Origin: Cyanobacteriota bacterium
Lineage (GTDB): Bacteria > Cyanobacteriota > Cyanobacteriia > Thermostichales > Thermostichaceae
Direction of reading: 5' to 3'
Assembly: GCA_033764955.1 (NCBI GenBank)
Contig: JANRIL010000036.1
Location: 1-16,984 of the forward strand
DNA length: 16,984 nt
Position 1 is the stretch's first letter. Every line of letters starts with the position of its first letter. Positions 9,340-16,984 of this stretch are shown piece by piece. The notes under the pieces are model-generated. The model was not told the DNA's origin. It searched no databases and saw nothing but the letters and a program-made list of their open reading frames with translations. The position numbers and the translations under genes are program-made.

Positions 9340-9757
9340 TTGAGTAAGGAATTAGAAAATATTCGAGATGAGCAGATCCGGAGATTGGTTTACACACTTT
9401 TGTCGTTCCTCAATCCACGACAAGACGCAATCGTTCTCTACCTTTATCGGGAAGCGACACGCGAGAAGATGGGTTCACGGATCCACTTCAATGTAAATGA
9501 TTTGCTAGAAACGTTAGGCTACTCTAGAGCAAGAAATGGTTTTTTTTCCGGCAAAATATCGTTCTCAGCTTCATCGTGATCTGGTTGCATTGCATCGCAC
9601 TGAGTTATTATTTGCTGGGTCATCGCAGGGTGCTAAAACAGAAGAAATTTTCTGTACAATCCATCCACATCAAACAAAACGATGTCGTGTGAGGAAAAAT
9701 GTCATCATAGCTATTCTTCGTTGTGGTGAAGTGAAATGGTTCCGTGTCTGCGGCTAG
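9340..9757 (+). pseudogene. Frameshifted fragment of a cyanobacterial plasmid-type (possibly replication-related) protein
   Basis: Two short ORFs join by removing one T from the T8 run at 9540-9547, giving ...NDLLETLGYSRARNGFFPAKYRSQLHRDLVALHRTELLFA. The resemblance to plasmid Rep-like proteins is from memory and unverified. Confidence 0.45.
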
Positions 9758-10054
9758 GGGTTAGACCTGCTCTGGAATAAAGCTAGAACGGGGGAAACTT
9801 GGGCTATTACAATGACGGCTTTTTCGATTACAAAAGGAACCCGCCTGCCAGGGACTCCACATTGGCGCATATAAAATTACCTGCTCAATATCAAAACATG
9901 CCATTATTGCTACATGCACACAGCAATTCCCATTTTGACTAGCAACTTGTTCAGGCTGCCAAATCTAGAACGACGGAATAGGTTTTTCAAAAAAGGCTAT
10001 TGAGACTATTCCCAATAAGCTCAAGTAAGATTTTCATAATGAGAATTGTTGACA

Positions 10055-10412
10055 AGCACAAGCTGTTTTAACCTCTTGACAAGCCTAATGCAGCACCACC
10101 GCCGCCTCTCCCAAACGTTCTGGACTACTAGCCTCAACCACCACCAACGACATCATCAACCTCACGCTATCAACGAGGATAAACTGCTTGAGCCCTTTGG
10201 TCTGTTTGCCAACATCAAAGCCGTAGACCTCCCCCTTTTTTTCCTCGTTTTCACCGACTGAGAATTGAGCAGGCCAGTGTTTGCCTGGGGTTTCTTGCCG
10301 ACGGCTTCTCGTAGTTGGACTCTCAGCTCATCAACCACCGCCTGCCAGATGCCCAGTTTCTGCCACAAGCGCAAATAGCCATAGACCGTCTGCCACTTCG
10401 GTAAGTCATTAG
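10055..10412 (-). mobile_element. IS5-family transposase remnant (internal fragment)
   Basis: DLPKWQTVYGY.R.WQK.GIW...NSQSVKT, then an A7G5 slippery run (10231-10242) leading in another frame to EVYGFDVGKQTKGLKQFILVDS...EASSPERLG. Catalytic DSQSVK is decayed to NSQSVK, with an in-frame stop at 10085-10087. N- and C-termini absent. Confidence 0.88.
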
Positions 10413-10498
10413 ATTGAGAAATACCCCGGATCCATAACCTCCAACCCCAAAGATCCCCCAGCAAACATCACCACCACAAACCCCACCACCCGATTCAT
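10409..10498 (-). CDS. 29-aa hydrophobic peptide or gene truncated at the IS5 junction
   Basis: MNRVVGFVVVMFAGGSLGLEVMDPGYFSI*. ATGA overlap with the upstream gene; ends where the IS5 similarity begins. Confidence 0.4.
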   Translation of the reverse strand: MNRVVGFVVVMFAGGSLGLEVMDPGYFSI

Positions 10499-10770
10499 CG
10501 TTTTTGCTCCAACTTATCCAGCCGAGACAGAAAATACTGCGTATGAACCTGATTCGCCGCCGAGATCCGATTGAGTTGATCCACATCCTTCTGCAACCCC
10601 GACAACTCCTGCGAGATCACCCCCAACCGCTCCTGGGTCTGCAACGCCTGTTCCTGCAAGCCAAACCCCAGCGAAACAAGCTTCAGCAACCCCGCCACCA
10701 TCAGCCCCTGAAACACCTTCCCATCCGTCAACCAGCCGATTACCGTTTGAAATTTGCTGTCCATACTCAC
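10495..10770 (-). CDS. Small membrane protein, one TM helix plus coiled coil (holin-like architecture)
   Basis: Hydrophobic VFQGLMVAGLLKLVSLGFGL followed by a heptad-like tail ending SRLDKLEQKR. GTGA overlap with the upstream gene. Confidence 0.65.
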   Translation of the reverse strand: MSMDSKFQTVIGWLTDGKVFQGLMVAGLLKLVSLGFGLQEQALQTQERLGVISQELSGLQKDVDQLNRISAANQVHTQYFLSRLDKLEQKR

Positions 10771-11471
10771 CGCACCACCACAATCTGAGCCACGTCATAG
10801 GATCCGTTCCGCAGCGAATACAACTCCCCATTCACCCGCTGATAGAACTTCACCCCCACCGCCCCCAAGGTCAGCAAAGCCGGATCCATAGGCAACGGCA
10901 CACTCCACTCCACCGGATCCCCTACCACCGCAAACGCCGTCATCCCAACTTGAACCACAGCCAAAAAGTCCGGATCCAAATTCACCTGAGCCACCAGCGC
11001 CACCACCGAGATATCAGTCGTCCCCGGCGGCGCATAAATATCTCTAGGAGCCAGCACCCCACCCCCCATTTTCGCCACAGTGAGCGCATCCCCCACCACG
11101 CCAACAGCCAACGGAGCCACCGAAGTCAAATTCGAGTTCCCATTCAACTCAAACTTAGGCAACACCTGACGCGCCTCGCTAATGGAGAGGATCCGTTTGC
11201 CCCGCTCATGATCCGGATCCAACGCCACCCCAGAGCGCACCACCTGCACCATCCGCCCCGCCAGATAGCGGTCACCCACATCCAGCCCCCGCAGCGCATC
11301 CCGAATCACCTTCGCCTGTTTAGCCGCAATCGCAAATTCCGAATTATTTTCCTTAGTTCGTTCCGCCGTCACCTCACGGGATCCAGCCGCCTTACTCACC
11401 GTCCCTTCCCGACTAAACGTCAGACCACCCACCGTCCCTTGCAGTTGAATAATCCCCGTATTCCGTGCCAT
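10767..11471 (-). CDS. Conserved hypothetical protein (MARNTGIIQLQGTVGGLTF... family)
   Basis: 234 aa from ATG 11471 (alternative TTG start at 11483), AGAGG upstream. Motifs RTKENNSEF..A...K..R.AL and GVKFYQRVNGELYSLRNGSY. Confidence 0.85.
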   Translation of the reverse strand: MARNTGIIQLQGTVGGLTFSREGTVSKAAGSREVTAERTKENNSEFAIAAKQAKVIRDALRGLDVGDRYLAGRMVQVVRSGVALDPDHERGKRILSISEARQVLPKFELNGNSNLTSVAPLAVGVVGDALTVAKMGGGVLAPRDIYAPPGTTDISVVALVAQVNLDPDFLAVVQVGMTAFAVVGDPVEWSVPLPMDPALLTLGAVGVKFYQRVNGELYSLRNGSYDVAQIVVVR

Positions 11472-11527
11472 TTTGGATCCCAATAAACCTCTATTGCCAC
11501 AGTAGTCAGGATCAATTCAGCACTCCA

Positions 11528-11546
11528 GAGCAACTGACTAGGCAAG
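11528..11546. repeat. 19-bp direct repeat, copy 1 (candidate operator)
   Basis: GAGCAACTGACTAGGCAAG, 17/19 identical to 11761-11779. Confidence 0.6.
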
Positions 11547-11717
11547 CACAGGAGCAAGTTTAGTCATGGATTGTTGTGCCAACGGAGAGGGAGAAGACTT
11601 CCCACTTTCCCACCGAACAACTGTGGATGTGGTGCAACCCAAAGCCGCTGCAAATTGTTCCTGAGTCATCCCCAGAGATAAGCGCAATTGTTTGATTTTG
11701 GCTTTTTCCATAGTCAT
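11538..11717 (-). CDS. XRE/Cro-family helix-turn-helix regulator, 59 aa (not in the ORF track)
   Basis: MTMEKAKIKQLRLSLGMTQEQFAAALGCTTSTVVRWESGKSSPSPLAQQSMTKLAPVLA*, a classic HTH_3 pattern. G-rich RBS upstream. Confidence 0.92.
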   Translation of the reverse strand: MTMEKAKIKQLRLSLGMTQEQFAAALGCTTSTVVRWESGKSSPSPLAQQSMTKLAPVLA

Positions 11718-11760
11718 ACCCCCCCTTTTTCGACCCTATCACAGGCATTCTTAAAGACCT

Positions 11761-11779
11761 GAGCAAACGACTAGGCAAG
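11761..11779. repeat. 19-bp direct repeat, copy 2 (candidate operator)
   Basis: GAGCAAACGACTAGGCAAG, 44 nt upstream of the HTH start codon. Confidence 0.6.
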
Positions 11780-11786
11780 TGAGCAC

Positions 11787-11832
11787 CGTTGCCGTATCAA
11801 ATCCATATCGTTGCCGTATCAAATCCATATCG
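11787..11832. repeat. Perfect 22-bp tandem repeat, two copies
   Basis: CGTTGCCGTATCAAATCCATAT x2 plus CG, in the divergent intergenic region between the HTH and Rpn genes. Confidence 0.9.
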
Positions 11833-11941
11833 GACCATCTCACCAGCTCGTAGCGGATCCGCCAGAGGATTTTGCTGCGGTGGGGAAGATTCCCTGTTCG
11901 TTAGTCGTGAAACCGTCGCCATCGGATCCTAAAATGAAACT

Positions 11942-12787
11942 ATGTATGATCCCATCTGTAAATTCCTAGTCGAACACTATTCTCAAGACTTTGCCACTTG
12001 GTTATTAGGGGCATCAGAACCCTTGACTGAAATCAAACCATCTGAGTTATCCTTAGAGCCAATTCGAGCCGATTCCATCATTCTTTTACAGTCGAAACAG
12101 TCCATTTTGCATTTGGAATTTCAAACCCAGCCAAAACGCAATATCCCCTTTCGAGTCCTCGATTATTGGGTACGGATCCATCGCATCTTCCCTGGTAAAG
12201 ATATCGTGCAAGTGGTGATCTATCTGGAACCCACCGGATCCGATAGGGTCTACGAATCTGCATTTGTACTGGGAACAACCCGGCATGAGTTTCAGGTCAT
12301 TCGCTTGTGGGAGCAGTCACCGGATTTGTTTTTACAAGCACCGGGATTATGGCCTTTTGTGATGTTGACCAAGGTATCGGATCCTGAAGCGATGTTACGA
12401 GATCTCAGCCAACGGATCGATCAATTATCGGATCCGCAGATGCAGAGCAATGTTTCAGCAGCAACGGCAGTGTTGGCTGGGCTAGTCTTAGATAATGAAA
12501 TAATCAATCGAATCTTAAGGAAAGACATCATGCGACAATCAGTGATTTACCAAGAGATCCAAGAAGAAGCGATTGCCGAACACAAACAAGAGTGGATCCA
12601 ACTGGGCAAACAAGAAGGGATCCAACTGGGTAAGGAGGAAGGCAAACAAGAAGGCAAACAAGAAGGCATCCAACAGGTCGCACTCAACCTGCTGAATACA
12701 GGGATGGATCCAGCTAAAGTCTCGGCAGTCACCGGATTGACCTTAGAACAAGTGCAACAATTAGCCCTAGACTCCCCATCTTCGTAG
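11942..12787 (+). CDS. Rpn family PD-(D/E)XK nuclease (recombination-promoting nuclease/putative transposase)
   Basis: MYDPICKFL, SELSLEPIRADS, ILHLEFQT, FRVLDY, VIRLWEQ, MRQSVIYQEI, GKQE repeats and a C-terminal helical tail VALNLL..G...AVTGLTLEQV. Confidence 0.93.
   Translation: MYDPICKFLVEHYSQDFATWLLGASEPLTEIKPSELSLEPIRADSIILLQSKQSILHLEFQTQPKRNIPFRVLDYWVRIHRIFPGKDIVQVVIYLEPTGSDRVYESAFVLGTTRHEFQVIRLWEQSPDLFLQAPGLWPFVMLTKVSDPEAMLRDLSQRIDQLSDPQMQSNVSAATAVLAGLVLDNEIINRILRKDIMRQSVIYQEIQEEAIAEHKQEWIQLGKQEGIQLGKEEGKQEGKQEGIQQVALNLLNTGMDPAKVSAVTGLTLEQVQQLALDSPSS
12530..12787 (+). CDS. Putative in-frame intragenic small protein (RpnS-type antitoxin), 85 aa
   Basis: TAAGGA at 12516-12521, 8 nt before an in-frame ATG (MRQSVIYQEI...). 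Covers the repeat and helical C-terminal domain. Confidence 0.55.
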   Translation: MRQSVIYQEIQEEAIAEHKQEWIQLGKQEGIQLGKEEGKQEGKQEGIQQVALNLLNTGMDPAKVSAVTGLTLEQVQQLALDSPSS

Positions 12788-12816
12788 GATCCGCCAAGAC
12801 CGAGAGGACTGAAAGG

Positions 12817-13176
12817 GTGCCCTTCCACCGCAAATCCAAACCCAGCATCATCAAAGACCAGGTGCGGCGACTCGCGCCCAAACTCAGCTACATCTCCGAA
12901 GCCGATGAGCCAGTGAAGTTAGCCCATTACCCCCTAGCGGTGAGCAAACTCTGTGATCGAGTAGCCCAAGGGGATCCGGTTACTCTCCAATCCGGTGAAC
13001 AATTCTTCGAACCGTTGTTGTTGGATCCCTATTGGTTCCGACTGTGGCGACTCCTACAACAAAGCCCCATTCCTACCCAAGTGCTGCGGCTAGGCCAGAC
13101 TCAGCAAGCCATCTTTATCCTCAACGGATCCGTGATTTTGGAAACCCAAGCTTGCATGGATCCAGAAGTGGCTTGA
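12817..13176 (+). CDS. Nuclease A inhibitor (NuiA)-like protein, divergent
   Basis: LSYISEADEP resembles NuiA LLFMSESEYP; central FF; QVLRLGQ resembles QVYRLGE; 119 aa. Confidence 0.7.
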   Translation: MPFHRKSKPSIIKDQVRRLAPKLSYISEADEPVKLAHYPLAVSKLCDRVAQGDPVTLQSGEQFFEPLLLDPYWFRLWRLLQQSPIPTQVLRLGQTQQAIFILNGSVILETQACMDPEVA

Positions 13177-13333
13177 ATCAAGCAAGCGCAACATTTCAGA
13201 TCTCTCAGATTAAAGACCTCACCACAACCAACGGATCCATCCTGGCAATTTTGTAGATCCAAGTTGCTGCACAATGCTTCAAGCAAACGGATCCGATTCG
13301 TTAGGTTAGCAGATGTGCTGTTAAGGGTTCGCA

Positions 13334-13867
13334 ATGACCGTTTTGAACAACAACCAGAATTTTGAAAAAGCTCTGGCCTTCACTCAAAAATGGGAAGGAG
13401 GCTTCGTAGACCATCCTGTGGATCCGGGCGGACGCACCAACTTCGGCATCACCCAATCCACCTACAATCACTGGCGCAACAGCAAAAATCTCAAGCCCCA
13501 AGATGTGAAACGGATCCAACCCTCAGAAGTTGAATCCATCTATCGAGATCTCTACTGGATCCCTGCTCATTGCGCTCAAATGGTCTTGCCCTTGGCGATT
13601 GCTCACTTCGATACCGCAGTCAATTTTGGCGTAACCGGATCCGTCAAGTTCCTCCAATCCGTACTCAAAGTAAAAGTCGATGGCCTCTGGGGATCCGTTA
13701 CCCAATCAGCCTTTGAACACTCAAACTGCAAACATACCGCTCAGCATTTAGTCGAAGCCCGGATCCGTTACCGCCATCAACGAATCCGAGAAAATCCCAG
13801 CCAACAACTCTTTCTGCAAGGATGGCTCAATCGTGACCAGGCTCTTCTTACTGTAGTCATGAGGTAA
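13334..13867 (+). CDS. Glycoside hydrolase family 108 lysozyme with C-terminal peptidoglycan-binding domain
   Basis: WEGGFVDHPVDPGGRTNFGIT (EGG catalytic motif), IY...YW, FDTAVNFG, VDGLWGSVT, FLQGWLNR. Confidence 0.95.
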   Translation: MTVLNNNQNFEKALAFTQKWEGGFVDHPVDPGGRTNFGITQSTYNHWRNSKNLKPQDVKRIQPSEVESIYRDLYWIPAHCAQMVLPLAIAHFDTAVNFGVTGSVKFLQSVLKVKVDGLWGSVTQSAFEHSNCKHTAQHLVEARIRYRHQRIRENPSQQLFLQGWLNRDQALLTVVMR

Positions 13868-13907
13868 ATGAGTCCTATGGAACGGGTGTAATTATGGAGA
13901 TTAATCC

Positions 13908-14195
13908 ATGACCACCCTACAGAAATTAAGTGATCAATTGTGTGAGTTAGAAGCCCGGATCCCTAAGTTAATGAAAGACGGAGATCCTAACCCAGAGCAA
14001 TTGGCAGAACTAGAATCTCAAGCCCATTGGCTGAAAAACAAACTCAAAGTCTATTACTCATTACGCGCTGCCTTTGATGCCCTACCTGAAAATGGTGCTG
14101 GTGAAGCATACGGCGACCTCCTCGACCAAATGGCAGACGTAAAAGCTGCAATCACCCAGAGAGTAATCCCCAGTCCTACGGAGCGGGTGAAGTGA
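13908..14195 (+). CDS. Hypothetical helical protein, 95 aa
   Basis: GGAG RBS upstream of ATG; amphipathic helical pattern; co-oriented with neighbours. Confidence 0.75.
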   Translation: MTTLQKLSDQLCELEARIPKLMKDGDPNPEQLAELESQAHWLKNKLKVYYSLRAAFDALPENGAGEAYGDLLDQMADVKAAITQRVIPSPTERVK

Positions 14196-14207
14196 CCGGA
14201 GTTAGGT

Positions 14208-14369
14208 ATGTCAAGAAGTGGCGATGCGATGATTGATTTCCTAGTGGCACAAGCCGAATGGGGAGCCGCAGATCTCAATGCAACCCAGCGAGACGAATTG
14301 CTAGAAGCCGAATGGGAACAGTGGGAGCAGATGAATGATGAATGCGGATCCCTGGATTACCCAGCCTGA
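14208..14369 (+). CDS. Small acidic protein, 53 aa (not in the ORF track)
   Basis: GGAG at 14198-14201, ATG at 14208, 12 nt after the previous stop. MSRSGDAMIDFLVAQAEWGAADLNATQRDELLEAEWEQWEQMNDECGSLDYPA*. Confidence 0.7.
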   Translation: MSRSGDAMIDFLVAQAEWGAADLNATQRDELLEAEWEQWEQMNDECGSLDYPA

Positions 14370-14486
14370 TGAATGAACTTGGGGTGAGTCTACTTGCCCC
14401 TTTCATGACGGATCCACAAAACACCTAGCCGCCCTTGTCTTGCTCAAGAAAGTGTAGCAAGCCCACCCCGGCACCCCACCCAGCGG

Positions 14487-14506
14487 CTTGACCCACCCAC
14501 CACCGC
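14487..14506. repeat. 20-bp dispersed direct repeat, copy 1
   Basis: CTTGACCCACCCACCACCGC, identical to 15671-15690. Flanked by GCGGC/GCCGC. Confidence 0.85.
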
Positions 14507-14916
14507 GCCGCAACCCCACTCCCAATCCAAAAAAGTGGGAGAACGGATCCGGAGCCTCTTGACCTGACAAAAACCCTACTGATTGGGAAGCACAGCAAAG
14601 ATCCAACCCCTTCCGACCCTTCTCTCTCCTGTGGACAAATCCCCAACTTCCGACTCCCCAGAAGCATCTATTCTCTCTCTTTCATCCCTAGCTATGGCAA
14701 AAGATGGTCAGCGGATCCAATGCTCTGGACTGGAATTCCTTCTGAGAACTGGTAAGCACCGGATCCATTCCATCAAACAGCTCATCAATTCAACCCAGGT
14801 TCTTAACCCGACCAAGGCAGCGTGGATCCTCCTTGCCAGCCGGAAGTTAGGCTTAAATCATCGCGGGCAGTCGGTCGGATCCGGGATCGCCGCAGACTTG
14901 ATGGAACCCAGAACAC

Positions 14917-15094
14917 CCTGAAATCGACCCCTGAGCATGGGAGCTGCCGCGTCTCACAGTCCAAGGGGTGAACTGTACTCTGGCAAAACTTTTTCCTACA
15001 GCGACAGGTCAGAAAAACTTCCAGCCCTACGGGTTGCCCTCGCCCCTTGACCTCCTCTGGCCTTGCTCCCTGGCACGGGGTTATCGATTTCAGG
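14917..15094 (+). promoter_or_regulatory. Long imperfect inverted repeat 1, candidate ssDNA (Frpo-like) promoter
   Basis: Nested pairings: 14917-14927/15084-15094 (11 bp perfect), CCCC/GGGG, 14939-14944/15065-15070, 14962-14971/15040-15049, 14990-14995/15012-15017. TTGACC at 15047-15052. Confidence 0.7.
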
Positions 15095-15104
15095 AGTTTG
15101 TCCT

Positions 15105-15527
15105 ATGTCCATTGAAAAGTCTGCCCTCTCCAGTAAGTTCCGCCCTCTCACCACCCGCGAACGGGATGAACAATCCACTTTCCGCAAACAGCAAGCCGTC
15201 TTTTACACACTTCGTTCCCTAGTCTGGGAAGAGTCTAAAGGTCGCATTTTCAAAGATGCAGTCGATGATGGCACGTTGGATCCGATTGCTCCCCCTATCC
15301 GGCAGAAAGACGGATCCTACAGCCGCCCAGAGTACGACCCGGCTGATATCAAACAGCTCTATGCCGAAGCCTGGGAACAGTTCAAAGATGAGTTCGACCG
15401 TGGCTTCATCAAAGCAAGTCTAGATGAGTTGGTGGAATTTGCCCGCAAGCACTACCAGCATGATCTCGAAAGTCTGTTGGCTCTGAATGCGGAGCGCAGT
15501 GCTGCACGGTACAGTCGAGCGATGTAG
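15105..15527 (+). CDS. Hypothetical protein, 140 aa
   Basis: AGGAG at 15092-15096 then ATG (MSIEKSALSS...); globular charged composition; followed by a terminator. Confidence 0.85.
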   Translation: MSIEKSALSSKFRPLTTRERDEQSTFRKQQAVFYTLRSLVWEESKGRIFKDAVDDGTLDPIAPPIRQKDGSYSRPEYDPADIKQLYAEAWEQFKDEFDRGFIKASLDELVEFARKHYQHDLESLLALNAERSAARYSRAM

Positions 15528-15535
15528 TTACAACA

Positions 15536-15568
15536 AGGCTGGGGGGATCCGTTCTCCTCAGCTTTTTT
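15536..15568 (+). terminator. Intrinsic terminator
   Basis: AGGCTGGGGGGA-TCCGT-TCTCCTCAGCTT stem with G-U pairs running into a T tract, 9 nt after the stop codon. Confidence 0.75.
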
Positions 15569-15670
15569 ATGGCCTCCCCCCGGATCCAAGGCACAGAGAA
15601 AAGGATCCGACCCGCTTCACACGTCGGTCAGTTGTTCAAGTGACGCGGATCCGCCTCACGACTGGGGGAA

Positions 15671-15690
15671 CTTGACCCACCCACCACCGC
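15671..15690. repeat. 20-bp dispersed direct repeat, copy 2
   Basis: CTTGACCCACCCACCACCGC, enclosed by the perfect 9-bp stem CTGGGGGAA (15662-15670)/TTCCCCCAG (15692-15700). Confidence 0.85.
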
Positions 15691-15984
15691 ATTCCCCCAG
15701 ACCCCCGGCTATCGCTCTCCCCTCAAAATGGATCCAGCAAACCCAGCCCAACTGCATGGAGATCTTGCCCAACCCAAACAATCAGGCAGAGTGAACTCAA
15801 CTTGGATCCCAACACCGAAAACAACCATCGTCTAAATGTCACCAGCGGATCTGTCCCCTCCAACAATGCTCATCCGCAGATAGTCCAGAGAGGATCCCTC
15901 ATCAACCACAACCCCTCGGATCCGTGATCACCACCAGCCCAGTCGAACTCATCCGACCACAAGAGAGGGTTAGCCTTGAAACCA

Positions 15985-16170
15985 GGGAAACCGGAATCAC
16001 AAACGCTGGCATCCTGCCTCTGCCAAAACACCCAGTAGGATCCTGGGAATGCAAGAGTCGTTCCCCCACTTTCGCGGCATAGTCTCGTGCCTGCGATATT
16101 CCACGTTGGATGAGCCTCGCTTGCATTAAGGGCAACGGCGAACGAGGAGCCATCGTGATTCCAGTTTCCC
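15985..16170 (+). promoter_or_regulatory. Long imperfect inverted repeat 2, candidate ssDNA promoter
   Basis: 15985-16000/16155-16170 (15/16), TGGCATCCT/AGGAGCCA, 16048-16055/16120-16127 (8 bp perfect), inner TCGCGGCA/TGCCTGCGA. TTGCAT at 16121-16126. Ends 2 nt before the ATG. Confidence 0.7.
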
Positions 16171-16172
16171 CC

Positions 16173-16445
16173 ATGAAATTCAAGTCCGTTCTCTTCTCTG
16201 CTTTACGTCTCGGTTCTCAATCCATGCTGGTACGGCGCTCGACAGATTCCTTCACAGGTTGGGTCGGAGTCTTCCGCTTCTCCACACTGGCAGCAGCAGC
16301 CAACTTCGCTCGTGCTTGGAGTGAGTACAGTCATGTCCAAGCTGGCTCACTATTCCAAGTGTCGGTTCCTGTAGCTGGATTCCCGCGTGAGTTCTGCACT
16401 CAGCCTTGGTTGAGTTTGGGCAAGGCAGCAGCCCTAACGCGCTAG
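16173..16445 (+). CDS. Hypothetical Ser/Ala/Phe/Arg-rich protein, 90 aa
   Basis: MKFKSVLFSALRLG...RRSTDSFTGWVGVFRFSTLAAAANFARAW...VSVPV. Bounded by hairpin 2 and a terminator. Confidence 0.7.
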   Translation: MKFKSVLFSALRLGSQSMLVRRSTDSFTGWVGVFRFSTLAAAANFARAWSEYSHVQAGSLFQVSVPVAGFPREFCTQPWLSLGKAAALTR

Positions 16446-16452
16446 TTGGGTG

Positions 16453-16474
16453 AGGGGCAATTGCCCCTTTTTTT
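16453..16474 (+). terminator. Intrinsic terminator
   Basis: AGGGGCAATTGCCCCT palindrome followed by a T run, 7 nt after the stop codon. Confidence 0.85.
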
Positions 16475-16569
16475 CTTTCCCACCCCATCCCCCTGCCCCC
16501 TTTCCGCAACCCAAAGGGGGGATCCAAACCATATCTTTATAGTGGGGCATGACGATTCTTGAGTCCCTC

Positions 16570-16696
16570 GGATCCCTCTGCACTTCCCCGCACTCTATCC
16601 TGCCAAACAGCCTTGCAATATCGTTCGTCCACAGGGCGCTCCATCCTTGCACTCAGGGCAGGATCTGAACAGTGGGCATCGTACAGAGGACAATCC
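16570..16696 (+). promoter_or_regulatory. Long imperfect inverted repeat 3, candidate ssDNA promoter
   Basis: 16575-16583/16681-16689 (8/9), CACT/AGTG, 16597-16604/16657-16664 (8 bp perfect), 16614-16618/16647-16651. TTGCAC at 16647-16652; the RBS lies inside the stem. Confidence 0.6.
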
Positions 16697-16697
16697 C

Positions 16698-16832
16698 ATG
16701 CACTTAAAGAAACACGAATCGCCCCGCAATCAAGGCCGCAATGATCATGGCAAAGGCGGATCCGCTCGCAAGCGTCAACTCGATAAGCGTCAACGTCAGT
16801 TGATGAATCGTTTGCGAGAGCAACGCGGCTAA
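16698..16832 (+). CDS. Small very basic protein, 44 aa
   Basis: GAGGA RBS 7 nt before ATG; MHLKKHESPRNQGRNDHGKGGSARKRQLDKRQRQLMNRLREQRG*. Confidence 0.65.
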   Translation: MHLKKHESPRNQGRNDHGKGGSARKRQLDKRQRQLMNRLREQRG

Positions 16833-16848
16833 ATTGAGTCACCAGAAT

Positions 16849-16984
16849 GTCGGGTAAGGAAGGAAACGTCACCGTTCCTTCCTCCCCTAAGAACCGGACT
16901 TGACAGTTTCCCATCATCCGGCTCAAGCCTTCCGGCAAGAATGGACATTGATGTGGCAGTGGCGGTGTAGCAGTTGTAAGTTAT
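16849..16984 (-). mobile_element. Group II intron, 3' end (domains V and VI), continuing beyond the window
   Basis: Domain V GAGCCGGATGATGGGAAACTGTCAAGTCCGGTTC (16924-16891; AGC triad, GAAA loop). Domain VI GGGGAGGAAGGAACG-GTGA-CGTTTCCTTCCTT-A-CCC with bulged A, ending ...ACCCGAC at 16849. Confidence 0.96.
16923..16982 (-). CDS. ltrA: C-terminus of group II intron reverse transcriptase/maturase, HNH endonuclease domain (partial)
   Basis: NLQLLHRHCHINVHSCRKA*, the typical end of the En domain. The stop codon overlaps the start of domain V. Confidence 0.88.
   Translation of the reverse strand, partial: NLQLLHRHCHINVHSCRKA

Follow-up and report, generated by a model that had tools for sequence, protein, structure and literature searches.

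Two conserved fold-back hairpins before small genes of a cyanobacterial integrative island as candidate promoters of single-stranded DNA

Can the long inverted repeats that stand directly before small genes in a 16,984-nt stretch of cyanobacterial DNA (the whole of which is termed here the window) serve as promoters that only a folded single strand would provide? On enterobacterial conjugative plasmids, promoters of this kind time the expression of the first anti-defence genes, and we know of no experimentally shown promoter restricted to single-stranded DNA outside such plasmids. A preliminary description of the locus extended the idea to three consecutive plus-strand genes, each said to follow its own hairpin in an Frpo-like leading region. 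The analysis presented here supports the view that two of these hairpins, those before genes 1 and 2, are conserved functional elements bound to the genes they precede, and they are real whether they act as DNA or as RNA.

Hairpin 1 (14917..15094) and hairpin 2 (15985..16170), neither assigned to a strand, are long imperfect fold-backs located immediately 5′ of gene 1 and gene 2, respectively. The base of hairpin 1 is formed by 11 perfectly paired nucleotides (14917-14927 with 15084-15094), and the element folds as RNA with an energy of −76 kcal/mol and a z-score of −4.06 (0 of 200 shuffles as good), and as minus-strand DNA with −36.8 kcal/mol and a z-score of −2.82. Hairpin 2, built of outer arms 15985-16007 with 16148-16170 and inner arms 16048-16068 with 16107-16127, reaches z-scores of −3.30 as RNA (1 of 200 shuffles as good) and −4.67 as minus-strand DNA. 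The background for these values, 60 random upstream regions of the same genome, has a mean z-score of −0.46 (sd 1.28) with 2% of regions below −3, compared to 13 of 28 distinct gene-1 leaders with z ≤ −3. Both stems end close to the start of their genes as originally proposed, 10 nt 5′ of the gene 1 ATG (15105) and 2 nt 5′ of the gene 2 ATG (16173), and the TTG box paired with CAA can indeed be read in both hairpins. A sliding z-score scan of 180-nt windows over 9401-16980 left the hairpins unresolved, since its windows did not frame them, and a search of the whole window against Rfam (cmscan, E ≤ 1) returned no match to the hairpins, its sole match being a group II intron domain at 16849-16926.

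The third member of the proposed array did not withstand the same scrutiny. The region 5′ of gene 3 (16530..16697, plus strand) contains no significant or conserved hairpin, as the putative hairpin 3 (16530-16705) has a z-score of −1.45, a value not above chance (16 of 200 shuffles as good), and its sequence is unconserved across 20 orthologous gene-3 loci. Gene 3 itself (16698..16832, plus strand) encodes a basic core cyanobacterial protein of 44 residues, for which 229 of 401 class genomes contain a match, usually in single copy, with a second copy here on contig C45. Because gene 3 is a core gene lacking a significant hairpin, an array of three is not supported, and both the gene and its upstream region lie outside the island array and the system considered here.

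Hairpin 1 is inherited together with its gene. Homology to two copies on another contig (C14) begins at 14892-14897, so that a conserved flank of 25 nt (14892..14916, plus strand), too short to accommodate a full upstream promoter, marks the start of the module common to the paralogs; identity within this flank is 0.68-0.76, and further upstream 0.43-0.53. The hairpin is 0.85-0.86 identical between paralogs, versus 0.67-0.74 at third codon positions of gene 1, where positions 1 and 2 reach 0.96-0.99. A covariance model built from four close copies detected leaders in three further lineages (E-values of 9e-12 to 2e-4), and found three copies in the present genome, each directly 5′ of a gene-1 paralog. 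In the resulting model-fitted alignment of six sequences, compensatory (two-sided) changes affect 25 of the 58 pairs of hairpin 1, and 91.6% of cells are paired, whereas shuffles average 74.0% (none of 500 as high) and slid partners reach 51% at most; to lineages B, C, E, F, G and I, outside this alignment, MFE, cofold and RNAalifold scripts alone were applied. In distant genomes, too, hairpin 1 accompanies its gene as one unit at a fixed distance from the ATG, with the ribosome-binding site (RBS) included. A similar picture emerges for hairpin 2, which is more strongly conserved than gene 2 in the C14 paralog; the ACGCTGGCA, CCATCGT and GCAAG/CTTGC boxes persist in a distant relative, whose basal stem is altered on both sides. 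The conserved module of gene 2 begins only ~17 nt 5′ of this hairpin. An integron attC identity for the hairpins was judged by eye and rejected, as the hairpin is inherited with the downstream gene and the shared module starts at the hairpin 5′ base, not at a 3′ core site.

The downstream genes are themselves small and offer few clues. Gene 1 (15105..15527, plus strand) encodes a conserved cyanobacterial helical protein of 140 residues and of unknown function, for which 16 homologs were found; of the 401 genomes of the class 9 contain it, and it occurs at 20 metagenome loci. Its AlphaFold model (pLDDT 87.9) contains four helices; no family was found in Pfam, PHROGs or NCBIfam, a query of the structure atlas yielded nothing usable, and Foldseek returned no PDB match at E ≤ 0.001. 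The best VIA-align hit, a flagellar doublet protein with a Z-score of 7.0, lies within the chance range for helical proteins and was dismissed, as was a phage origin, with no phage-genome match and relatives encoded in 0 of 52 candidate stretches of viral contigs. Gene 2 (16173..16445, plus strand) encodes a small, poorly conserved protein of 90 residues, with one paralog (74-78% identity) and partial relatives 3′ of gene-1 homologs in two other sources; its conserved start is 16173 and not the upstream ATG at 16110, which the paralog lacks. In agreement with the preliminary description, each gene is followed by its own terminator-like hairpin and T run on the plus strand, at 15541..15568 (stem 15541-15558) for gene 1 and at 16452..16480 (stem 16452-16469) for gene 2, the latter being the point at which homology with the C14 island copy stops. 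Hairpin, small gene and terminator form a self-contained cassette for gene 1 and gene 2 alike.

Both cassettes sit on a multicopy integrative island, whose genes all share one orientation and include tyrosine integrases, a Toprim/AAA_25 primase-helicase, UvrD-like helicases and a LexA-like repressor. A short motif, GTCCTACGG...GGGTG, precedes most other island genes, in place of which genes 1 and 2 carry their long hairpins. The claim that this is a leading region, as on a conjugative plasmid, found no backing: neither a relaxase (PF03432, PF08751) nor a VirB4 (PF03135) gene was found in the genome, which is 89% complete, PF02534 gave a borderline match only, on another contig, and no oriT or type IV secretion system was found for the island. 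The element is an integrative island and not a recognised conjugative one, though it may have a transfer system of an unrecognised type. Small genes of unknown function on such islands often adjoin CRISPR, restriction-modification and DISARM loci. The palindrome GGATCC is abundant in the genome.

Where, then, could transcription of these cassettes begin? The module shared by the gene 1 paralogs starts only ~25 nt before the hairpin, which places the promoter probably inside it, and the terminator behind gene 1 means that gene 2 must have its own promoter; no conserved sigma-70-like site was found upstream of the hairpins. Within hairpin 1, the proximal-arm box CCCCTTGACC (15043..15052, plus strand) contains TTGACC (15047-15052), a candidate −35 element 58 nt before the ATG, and pairs with the distal-arm box CCAAGGGGTG (14961..14970, plus strand), which recurs in most lineages. 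The stem that holds the TTG box (helix 7) is the sole long helix conserved in sequence instead of covarying, with four invariant pairs and 0 compensatory changes. Among 28 distinct leaders, 19 have a box of the form CCTT[GT][ACG]C between −55 and −65 relative to the ATG. Hairpin 2, whose family is unrelated to that of hairpin 1, exhibits an equivalent pair, TGCAAGAG (16050-16057) with CGCTTGCAT (16118-16126), the latter containing TTGCAT (16121-16126) 52 nt before the ATG, and across this family the TTG box is positioned at −52 or −48. In the two C14 paralogs of hairpin 1 the proximal arm reads TTTCCG, whereas the distal-arm complement has TTGAAG or TTGGAG.

Downstream of the TTG box the rod opens. 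Mean pairing probability along the proximal arm reaches its lowest internal values between +22 and +26 from TTG, with a minimum of 0.27 at +24, and is below 0.5 there in 8 of 9 lineages. Here the distal arm of hairpin 1 offers a candidate −10 hexamer on the minus strand (14934..14939, AGCATG on the plus strand and CATGCT on the minus strand), at register 22-23 from TTG, its A and its last T both falling on mismatches; equivalents in other copies and lineages are TACGCT, TATGCT, TAGGCT, TACGAT, TACTTT, CAGACT, TAGGGT and TAAAAT. The proximal-arm hexamer lying opposite, CTGGCA (15070..15075, plus strand), has no −10 character, and the double-stranded form therefore lacks a −10; nor did a promoter scan find a sigma-70-like site at 15070..15075. 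A sigma-54 reading of the proximal-arm TGGCAC was also considered and rejected, since the −12 element is missing; to our knowledge, cyanobacteria lack RpoN. All three analysable copies of hairpin 2 show the same arrangement, with distal-arm-complement hexamers at register 18-21 reading CAGGAT in the window (16011..16016, minus strand; ATCCTG on the plus strand), CATGGT in the C14 copy and CACCGT in the distant relative, and with no such hexamer at this register of the proximal arm in either the window copy or that of C14, and AACAGT in the relative.

When this asymmetry was counted over 14 sequences (six further anchored ones were dropped, as their arms did not align as a rod), 8.0 of 8 lineages had an NAnnnT hexamer starting at register 19-27 on the distal-arm complement, versus 1.0 of 8 for the proximal arm, and other register windows gave 1.75-4.5 and 2.0-4.5 of 8, respectively. 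An anchor-free repeat on 27 foldable leaders recovered a rod in 18, with the hexamer on the distal-arm complement in 16 of these and on the proximal arm in 6, and with 9 of 19 and 5 of 19, respectively, in a control zone. On the other side, these hexamer and bubble tests were devised after viewing the sequences, and the lineages are related; the hexamers often start with C and not T, and spacer lengths in strand coordinates range between 15 and 20 nt. No validation either way comes from a crude sigma-70 consensus scan, which scores the window hairpins at no more than 7/12 and the three known hairpins of plasmid F, all of which fold well, at 6-7/12, and it cannot calibrate the former score because the F hairpins gave no convincing −35 and −10 boxes.

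This geometry suggests, with somewhat less than even confidence, that hairpins 1 and 2 are Frpo-like fold-back promoters active only on single-stranded DNA. The uniform gene orientation and the gene content of the island, and the plasmid setting of a distant gene-1-like domain (see below), fit this reading as context. According to this model, a single-stranded minus strand, the template of both genes, would fold into a rod of ~180 nt, in which the invariant GC-rich stem would present the TTG box as a duplex −35 element and the conserved mismatch bubble would follow ~15-17 nt further along. At the bubble the complement of the distal arm would act as a stand-in for the non-template strand, supplying a TAnnnT or CAnnnT hexamer in which the important A and T tend to lack a pairing partner. 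The start site would then fall ~22-25 nt 5′ of the ATG, for gene 1 close to 15080-15085, and the mRNA, not including the distal arm, would leave the ribosome site free. In double-stranded DNA the non-template strand would be the proximal arm, which lacks the −10, and the promoter would be silent. Polymerase use, the single-stranded state of the minus strand, and a role of the proteins as establishment or anti-defence factors are what we infer from this arrangement. The original Frpo-like interpretation finds support in part, the TTG box, the bubble and the hexamer at −10 register being what a fold-back promoter on the minus strand would predict; a leading region and an array of three are not supported, and the relaxase and VirB4 genes looked for and not found weigh against the promoter reading. 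A broader proposal is more doubtful, that of a cyanobacterial family of single-strand-gated promoters on integrative islands devoid of recognisable conjugation machinery, firing only while the island DNA is single-stranded; natural transformation uptake, mobilisation, or rolling-circle-type replication of the excised island may be the phases in which this occurs.

Known counterparts are instructive in this respect. PMC11541004 and PMC12672017 describe Frpo1/Frpo2 of plasmid F and ssi1-3 of ColIb-P9/pESBL as class 1 single-stranded promoters, with pESBL also harboring classes 2 and 3, and the former source recognises Frpo/ssi elements by sequence similarity to known ones. As these sources portray them, such elements resemble the window hairpins in being long imperfect hairpins directly 5′ of small co-oriented genes of mobile elements and in lacking a good promoter in the double-stranded form. 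They carry −35- and −10-like elements in the stem with mismatches at −10, to which the candidate sites described here, with a consensus match of 7/12, may correspond. The template strand folds in both cases, with a z-score of −5.87 for the F hairpin 5′ of ssb versus −2.82 and −4.67 for the window hairpins, of which the plus strand folds equally well. The window hairpins, at ~180 nt, differ from the three F hairpins folded for comparison (317-417 nt), and the candidate promoters lie on an island with no relaxase, secretion system or oriT found, not in a leading region beside oriT, and in a cyanobacterial host. A blastn search of 14890-16180 against 72,556 PLSDB plasmid records, F (NC_002483.1) included, gave no match, and a literature search did not find 'ssDNA promoter' and 'cyanobacteria' together, the latter word being absent from PMC11541004. 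A different arrangement is found in the Bacillus plasmid p576 (Reg576), where, as described in PMC6294495, repressor-controlled establishment genes use ordinary double-stranded promoters with operator repeats. The short upstream motif that several small genes share there is comparable to the island's own, which genes 1 and 2 replace by their long hairpins.

The strongest competitor of a single-strand promoter is a hairpin functioning in the mRNA. Leader hairpins that are processed by RNase III or sequester the RBS are a known type, and the present elements share with them the rod shape, the base pairs with the RBS and a location between co-oriented genes of a mobile element. Transcription would then start upstream, by read-through out of preceding island genes or from an unrecognised promoter, and the base of the 5′ UTR rod would sequester the RBS until released by RNase III-type cleavage, a protein or temperature. 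This reading is plausible, if short of even probability. Pairing of the RBS with the distal arm covaries between lineages (e.g., CCTCC with GGAGG), as an RNA switch would directly predict, and helices 1 and 2, including the RBS-proximal stem, show two-sided changes in 11 of 15 pairs. Read-through into hairpin 1 would be possible given that no plus-strand terminator-like site occurs in 13800-15541, and a sigma-70-like site at 14833-14861 would place the whole hairpin in the transcript, but this site is at chance level (1 found, 1.7 expected) and outside the conserved module. Gene 2, for its part, follows a terminator, and its module starts too close to hairpin 2, as noted above, to sit easily with an upstream start. 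An RNA leader would be expected to tolerate G·U wobbles on the sense strand only. The model-fitted alignment does contain 26 G·T cells versus 7 A·C cells on the plus strand, where G·T corresponds to an A·C mismatch on the minus strand, but the plus-strand advantage is inconsistent across lineages: the plus strand is the better folded as RNA in 8 of 27 leaders and is favoured by RNAalifold in 3 of 7 groups, mean DNA z-scores of −2.48 (plus) and −2.82 (minus) show that both strands fold, and 1x1 mismatches comprise 6 G·T, 14 A·C and 42 others. The strand tests do not favour the minus strand either, the other strand measures being symmetric or mixed. Unlike what is expected of such leaders, there is no consistent G·U excess on the sense strand, and no Rfam family is matched. 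Nor does an RNA role predict a TTG box shared at the same ATG distance by two unrelated hairpins, or the confinement of NAnnnT to the distal-arm complement at −10 register.

Other explanations have to account for the bond between hairpin and gene. The folding of both strands as DNA, the primase-helicase and UvrD-like helicases encoded by the island, and the priming of DNA synthesis also reported for known Frpo elements (PMC12672017) would suit a single-strand initiation signal or other single-stranded site of the island, serving for instance complementary-strand synthesis after rolling-circle replication or DNA uptake, with gene position secondary. Such a signal would hardly be expected to travel with a gene at a fixed ATG distance and with the RBS included, to take two different forms before two different genes of one island, or to occur in three copies of hairpin 1 per genome that all precede gene 1, and we consider it improbable. 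Control by sense and antisense RNAs, in which transcripts of both leader strands would fold and pair with each other, as happens at type I toxin-antitoxin loci and in the control of plasmid copy number, draws on the nearly equal folding of the strands and on a minus-strand terminator-like hairpin with T run inside hairpin 2 (16047-16031). It is less probable still, as 13800-16984 contains no minus-strand promoter-like site and the gene 1 product, a 140-residue helical protein, is not a small hydrophobic toxin. Finally, in a genome rich in GGATCC and with a repeated island, chance inverted repeats or MITE-like repeats unrelated to the genes might be invoked. This is scarcely credible in view of z-scores far outside the background and a fold kept with compensatory changes in other genera, and the multicopy MITEs against which the preliminary description had cautioned are not what the hairpins are, as the hairpin 1 model finds three genome copies only, each before a gene-1 paralog.

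Should the single-strand promoter hold true, a structurally analogous yet unrelated hairpin family in cyanobacteria would imply that the trick has evolved repeatedly; the principle known from Frpo would then reach into another phylum and might also apply to a further way in which DNA enters cells. The products of genes 1 and 2, which represent two protein families of no known function, would become candidate early establishment or anti-defence factors, and the hairpin a signature by which to recognise such genes from sequence in a phylum whose mobile-element biology is poorly known. If instead the RNA reading is correct, the locus contributes two new cis-regulatory RNA structures, well supported and not represented in Rfam.

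Two further observations merit mention. The spacer between genes 1 and 2 measures 645 nt, a length kept at 610-645 nt in three genomes, and contains a conserved small hairpin on the plus strand (15661..15706; arms CTGGGGGAA and TTCCCCCAG, loop TTGACCCACCC), kept in both C14 paralogs and matching the equivalent spacer of a distant genome at 81% over 47 nt. A distant gene-1-like domain occurs in a Microcystis plasmid array together with an ArdC-like zincin, an orphan methylase, DUF4326 and DUF2493, and in this array CCCTTGAC boxes are found upstream of two genes.

The imperfect inverted repeats that the preliminary description had placed ahead of genes 1 (15105..15527, plus strand) and 2 (16173..16445, plus strand) were found at the positions claimed, hairpin 1 at 14917-15094 and hairpin 2 at 15985-16170, and both fold well beyond the genomic background. 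RNA folding z-scores are -4.06 and -3.30, and minus-strand DNA folding z-scores -2.82 and -4.67, respectively, against a mean of -0.46 (sd 1.28, 2% below -3) for 60 upstream regions drawn at random from this genome. Both also display the architecture ascribed to them, a TTG box in the proximal (gene-side) arm whose partner in the distal arm is CAA, and a stem that stops just short of the start codon, and each gene is then followed by a terminator-like hairpin and T run. The proposed array of three hairpin-gated genes is nonetheless reduced to these two members, since the third hairpin (16530-16705) does not rise above chance (z -1.45, 16 of 200 shuffles as good), gene 3 (16698..16832, plus strand) is present in 229 of 401 genomes of the class, nearly always as a single copy, its upstream region has no alignable conservation across 20 orthologous loci, and homology of the repeated island stops at 16480, before the gene. 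Gene 3 encodes a highly basic protein of 44 aa to which Pfam, PHROGs and NCBIfam give no family name, and a second copy lies on contig C45 of the same genome. The observation is thus confirmed in part, for two of three hairpins, and these are real, conserved elements new to the databases searched, with no matching family in Rfam and no plasmid record resembling the hairpin region.

Gene 1 (140 aa) represents a small family with members found in cyanobacteria alone: 16 database homologs, hits in 9 of 401 genomes, and 20 metagenome loci. Among the three paralogs of this genome identity is 0.96-0.99 at codon positions 1+2 and 0.67-0.74 at position 3, so that hairpin 1, at 0.85-0.86, is more constrained than silent sites. 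Thirteen of 28 distinct gene-1 leaders fold at z <= -3. A covariance model of hairpin 1 built from four close copies picked up the leaders of three further lineages (E 9e-12 to 2e-4). In the resulting six-sequence alignment, whose fitting to the model favours the structure, 91.6% of cells pair (shuffles, 74.0 ± 1.5%; slid partners, no more than 51%), and both-sided changes occur in 25 of 58 pairs (0 of 500 shuffles as high); because the effect size and slide control outweigh the fitting bias, the predicted fold is secure. Within the genome the model finds exactly three copies, each preceding a gene-1 paralog, and the idea that hairpin 1 is a MITE was therefore rejected. Hairpin 2 is conserved in the paralog on contig C14 more strongly than gene 2 itself, and in a distant relative three short boxes are retained and the basal stem is changed on both sides. 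Hairpins 1 and 2 are conserved functional elements. The spacer from gene 1 to gene 2 measures 610-645 nt in three separate sources; a small hairpin within it (15661-15706, CTGGGGGAA ... TTCCCCCAG, loop with TTGACCCACCC) is retained by both C14 paralogs and by one distant genome.

A promoter formed in single-stranded DNA is the best-supported mechanism for hairpins 1 and 2, at slightly less than even odds. Such a promoter is predicted to lie inside the hairpin, a prediction tested by the module start, the terminator and upstream sites. The module shared by paralogs starts only ~25 nt ahead of hairpin 1 and ~17 nt ahead of hairpin 2, gene 2 is preceded by a terminator, and no conserved sigma-70-like site was found upstream of the hairpins. 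No terminator lies between the upstream genes and hairpin 1, however, and the ribosome-binding site is paired with the stem base, a pairing that compensatory changes preserve (CCTCC with GGAGG in one lineage, a different sequence pair in the window). These two observations make a serious alternative of RNA leaders that gate translation, which ranks next after the single-strand promoter and is less likely than not. An RNA leader gives no explanation for a TTG box common to two unrelated hairpins, which 19 of 28 gene-1 leaders place at -55 to -65 relative to the ATG and the hairpin 2 family at -52 or -48. The stem containing this box (helix 7) is the only long helix with conserved sequence instead of covariation, as would be expected of a protein-read duplex.

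The geometry tests bearing on the single-strand promoter were designed after the sequences had been seen, and their lineages are related; in these, mean pairing probability along the proximal arm of nine lineages shows its strongest internal dip at +22 to +26 from TTG, with a minimum of 0.27 at +24 (eight of nine lineages below 0.5), a bubble placed where a -10 element would have its upstream end if the spacer is 17 nt. If the minus strand folds, the distal-arm complement would act as the non-template strand. In the 14 sequences used (six anchored ones whose arms could not be aligned as a rod were left out, and eight leaders have no recognisable box), NAnnnT with its start at register 19-27 is present in 8.0 of 8 lineages in this complement and in 1.0 of 8 in the proximal arm, the corresponding values in four other register windows being 1.75-4.5 and 2.0-4.5 of 8. 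An anchor-free repeat, in which 18 of 27 foldable leaders have a long-range rod, placed the hexamer in 16/18 distal-arm complements and 6/18 proximal arms (control zone, 9/19 and 5/19), or 14/16 and 6/16 upon omission of two sequences with a distal segment much longer than the proximal, an asymmetry that RNA leaders again leave unexplained. The hexamer of hairpin 1 in the window is CATGCT (complement of 14934-14939, its A and last T at mismatches), and the proximal arm opposite reads CTGGCA, so that the duplex form is without a -10. The distal-arm complement of hairpin 2 reads CAGGAT, CATGGT or CACCGT in all three analysable copies, with no such hexamer in the proximal arm of the two copies from this genome. 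Candidate -10 hexamers often begin with C, and the spacer is 15 to 20 nt depending on the strand counted. A crude consensus scan, with a best site of 7/12 in the window, argues neither for nor against a promoter, since three F-plasmid hairpins score only 6-7/12.

Several tests of the folding strand disagree and single out neither strand. In folding strength the two are much alike: as RNA, the plus strand comes out ahead in 8 of 27 leaders; mean DNA z-scores are -2.48 (plus) and -2.82 (minus), and RNAalifold favours the plus strand in three of seven groups. Isolated mismatches in Watson-Crick-only folds number 6 G.T, 14 A.C and 42 other, and the model-fitted alignment holds 26 G.T versus 7 A.C cells on the plus strand. 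Since hairpins 1 and 2 have neither sequence similarity to the Frpo family of single-strand promoters nor its leading-region location, they are described not as members but as elements that would work like Frpo. The preliminary description had proposed a candidate leading region; neither a relaxase gene (PF03432 or PF08751) nor VirB4 (PF03135) was found in this incomplete 3.8-Mb genome (51.5% GC, 89% complete), and transfer systems of cyanobacteria may escape recognition.

Gene 1 has no relatives in the phage genomes or viral contigs searched, and among plasmids the sole relative is a distantly related domain, part of a larger protein of Microcystis aeruginosa NIES-2481 plasmid p1. This domain stands in a row of genes of one orientation, together with DUF4326, DUF2493, a zincin-like protein (presumably ArdC-type, by its name) and an orphan methylase, company typical of establishment regions, and CCCTTGAC boxes lie ahead of two genes of the row. 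A TAGCTGAGAGA motif is shared ahead of two genes in the same array, and a strong long hairpin (10750-10850 of the p1 locus L101, z -4.57) is found immediately upstream of a CCCTTGACA box that precedes a DUF2493 gene. In two complete genomes (G270, locus L059, and G220, locus L060), gene-1 homologs are embedded in or adjoin type III CRISPR-Cas loci, with type III-B Cmr genes. A full-text search of a limited literature collection found neither 'ssDNA promoter' together with 'cyanobacteria' nor any mention of DUF3768, which is encoded in other copies of the island.

The window is an entire contig of 16,984 nt. Ordinary chromosomal genes (sulfatase, FGE-sulfatase-like protein, AraC regulator, alpha/beta hydrolase) occupy 1 to ~10,400, and are followed by the repeated island (10421-16480), with two more copies on C14 and fragments on C45 and C11. 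All island genes from 11942 on share one orientation and include an Rpn-family recombination-promoting nuclease or putative transposase (11942-12787; TIGR01784, 85.7 bits; paralogs on C36 and C5), a NuiA-like protein, a GH108 endolysin-type lysozyme and several small ORFs. Other copies encode tyrosine integrases, a Toprim/AAA_25 primase-helicase, UvrD-like helicases, a LexA-like S24 repressor, Gp157-like and DUF3768 proteins, an FRG protein and an M15 peptidase, and adjoin defence loci (DISARM DrmD, type I restriction enzymes, a type I-E CRISPR system). Island fragments or gene-1 modules on C11, C10, C14 and C24 lie in or near type I-E Cas3/Cse1, type I restriction subunits and SIR2, and the DrmD helicase near such modules or fragments scores 1165.8 bits. 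Most small island genes carry the motif (A)GTCCTACGG-N3-4-GGGTG 35-38 nt ahead of the ATG (window 13872-13880 and 14173-14181; 13 sites on C14, two each on C10 and C11); all 19 genomic copies fall within island copies, and further occurrences lie close to gene-1 homologs of other genera (L010, L015, L020, L022, L031, L037, L038, L060, L061, L063). This motif might serve as an operator, as part of a promoter or as a signal in the 5' leader. It is missing at that distance from genes 1 and 2, which have the hairpins instead, and a look-alike, AGCCCTACGGGTTG, lies in the apical part of hairpin 1 (15030-15043).

Two long ORFs overlap on opposite strands, at 10767-11483 (minus) and 10950-11486 (plus); the former, which matched no known family, is likely the real gene, since relatives keep its protein at 81-90% identity versus only 55-65% for the plus-strand frame. 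The palindrome GGATCC is ~12-fold over-represented genome-wide (11,709 sites versus ~983 expected), and 53 of the 56 sites in the window lie at or past 10428, with three in the first 10 kb, so that its density in the island far exceeds that in the neighbouring chromosomal genes, which are nearly devoid of it. The 3' end of a group II intron (domains 5-6; 16849-16926, minus strand; Rfam RF00029, 59.5 bits, E 1e-9) lies 17 nt past the gene 3 stop codon. The contig ends within this intron, and because 16844-16984 matches the end of C24 at 100% identity, the intron is, on this sequence evidence, the repeat at which the assembly broke.
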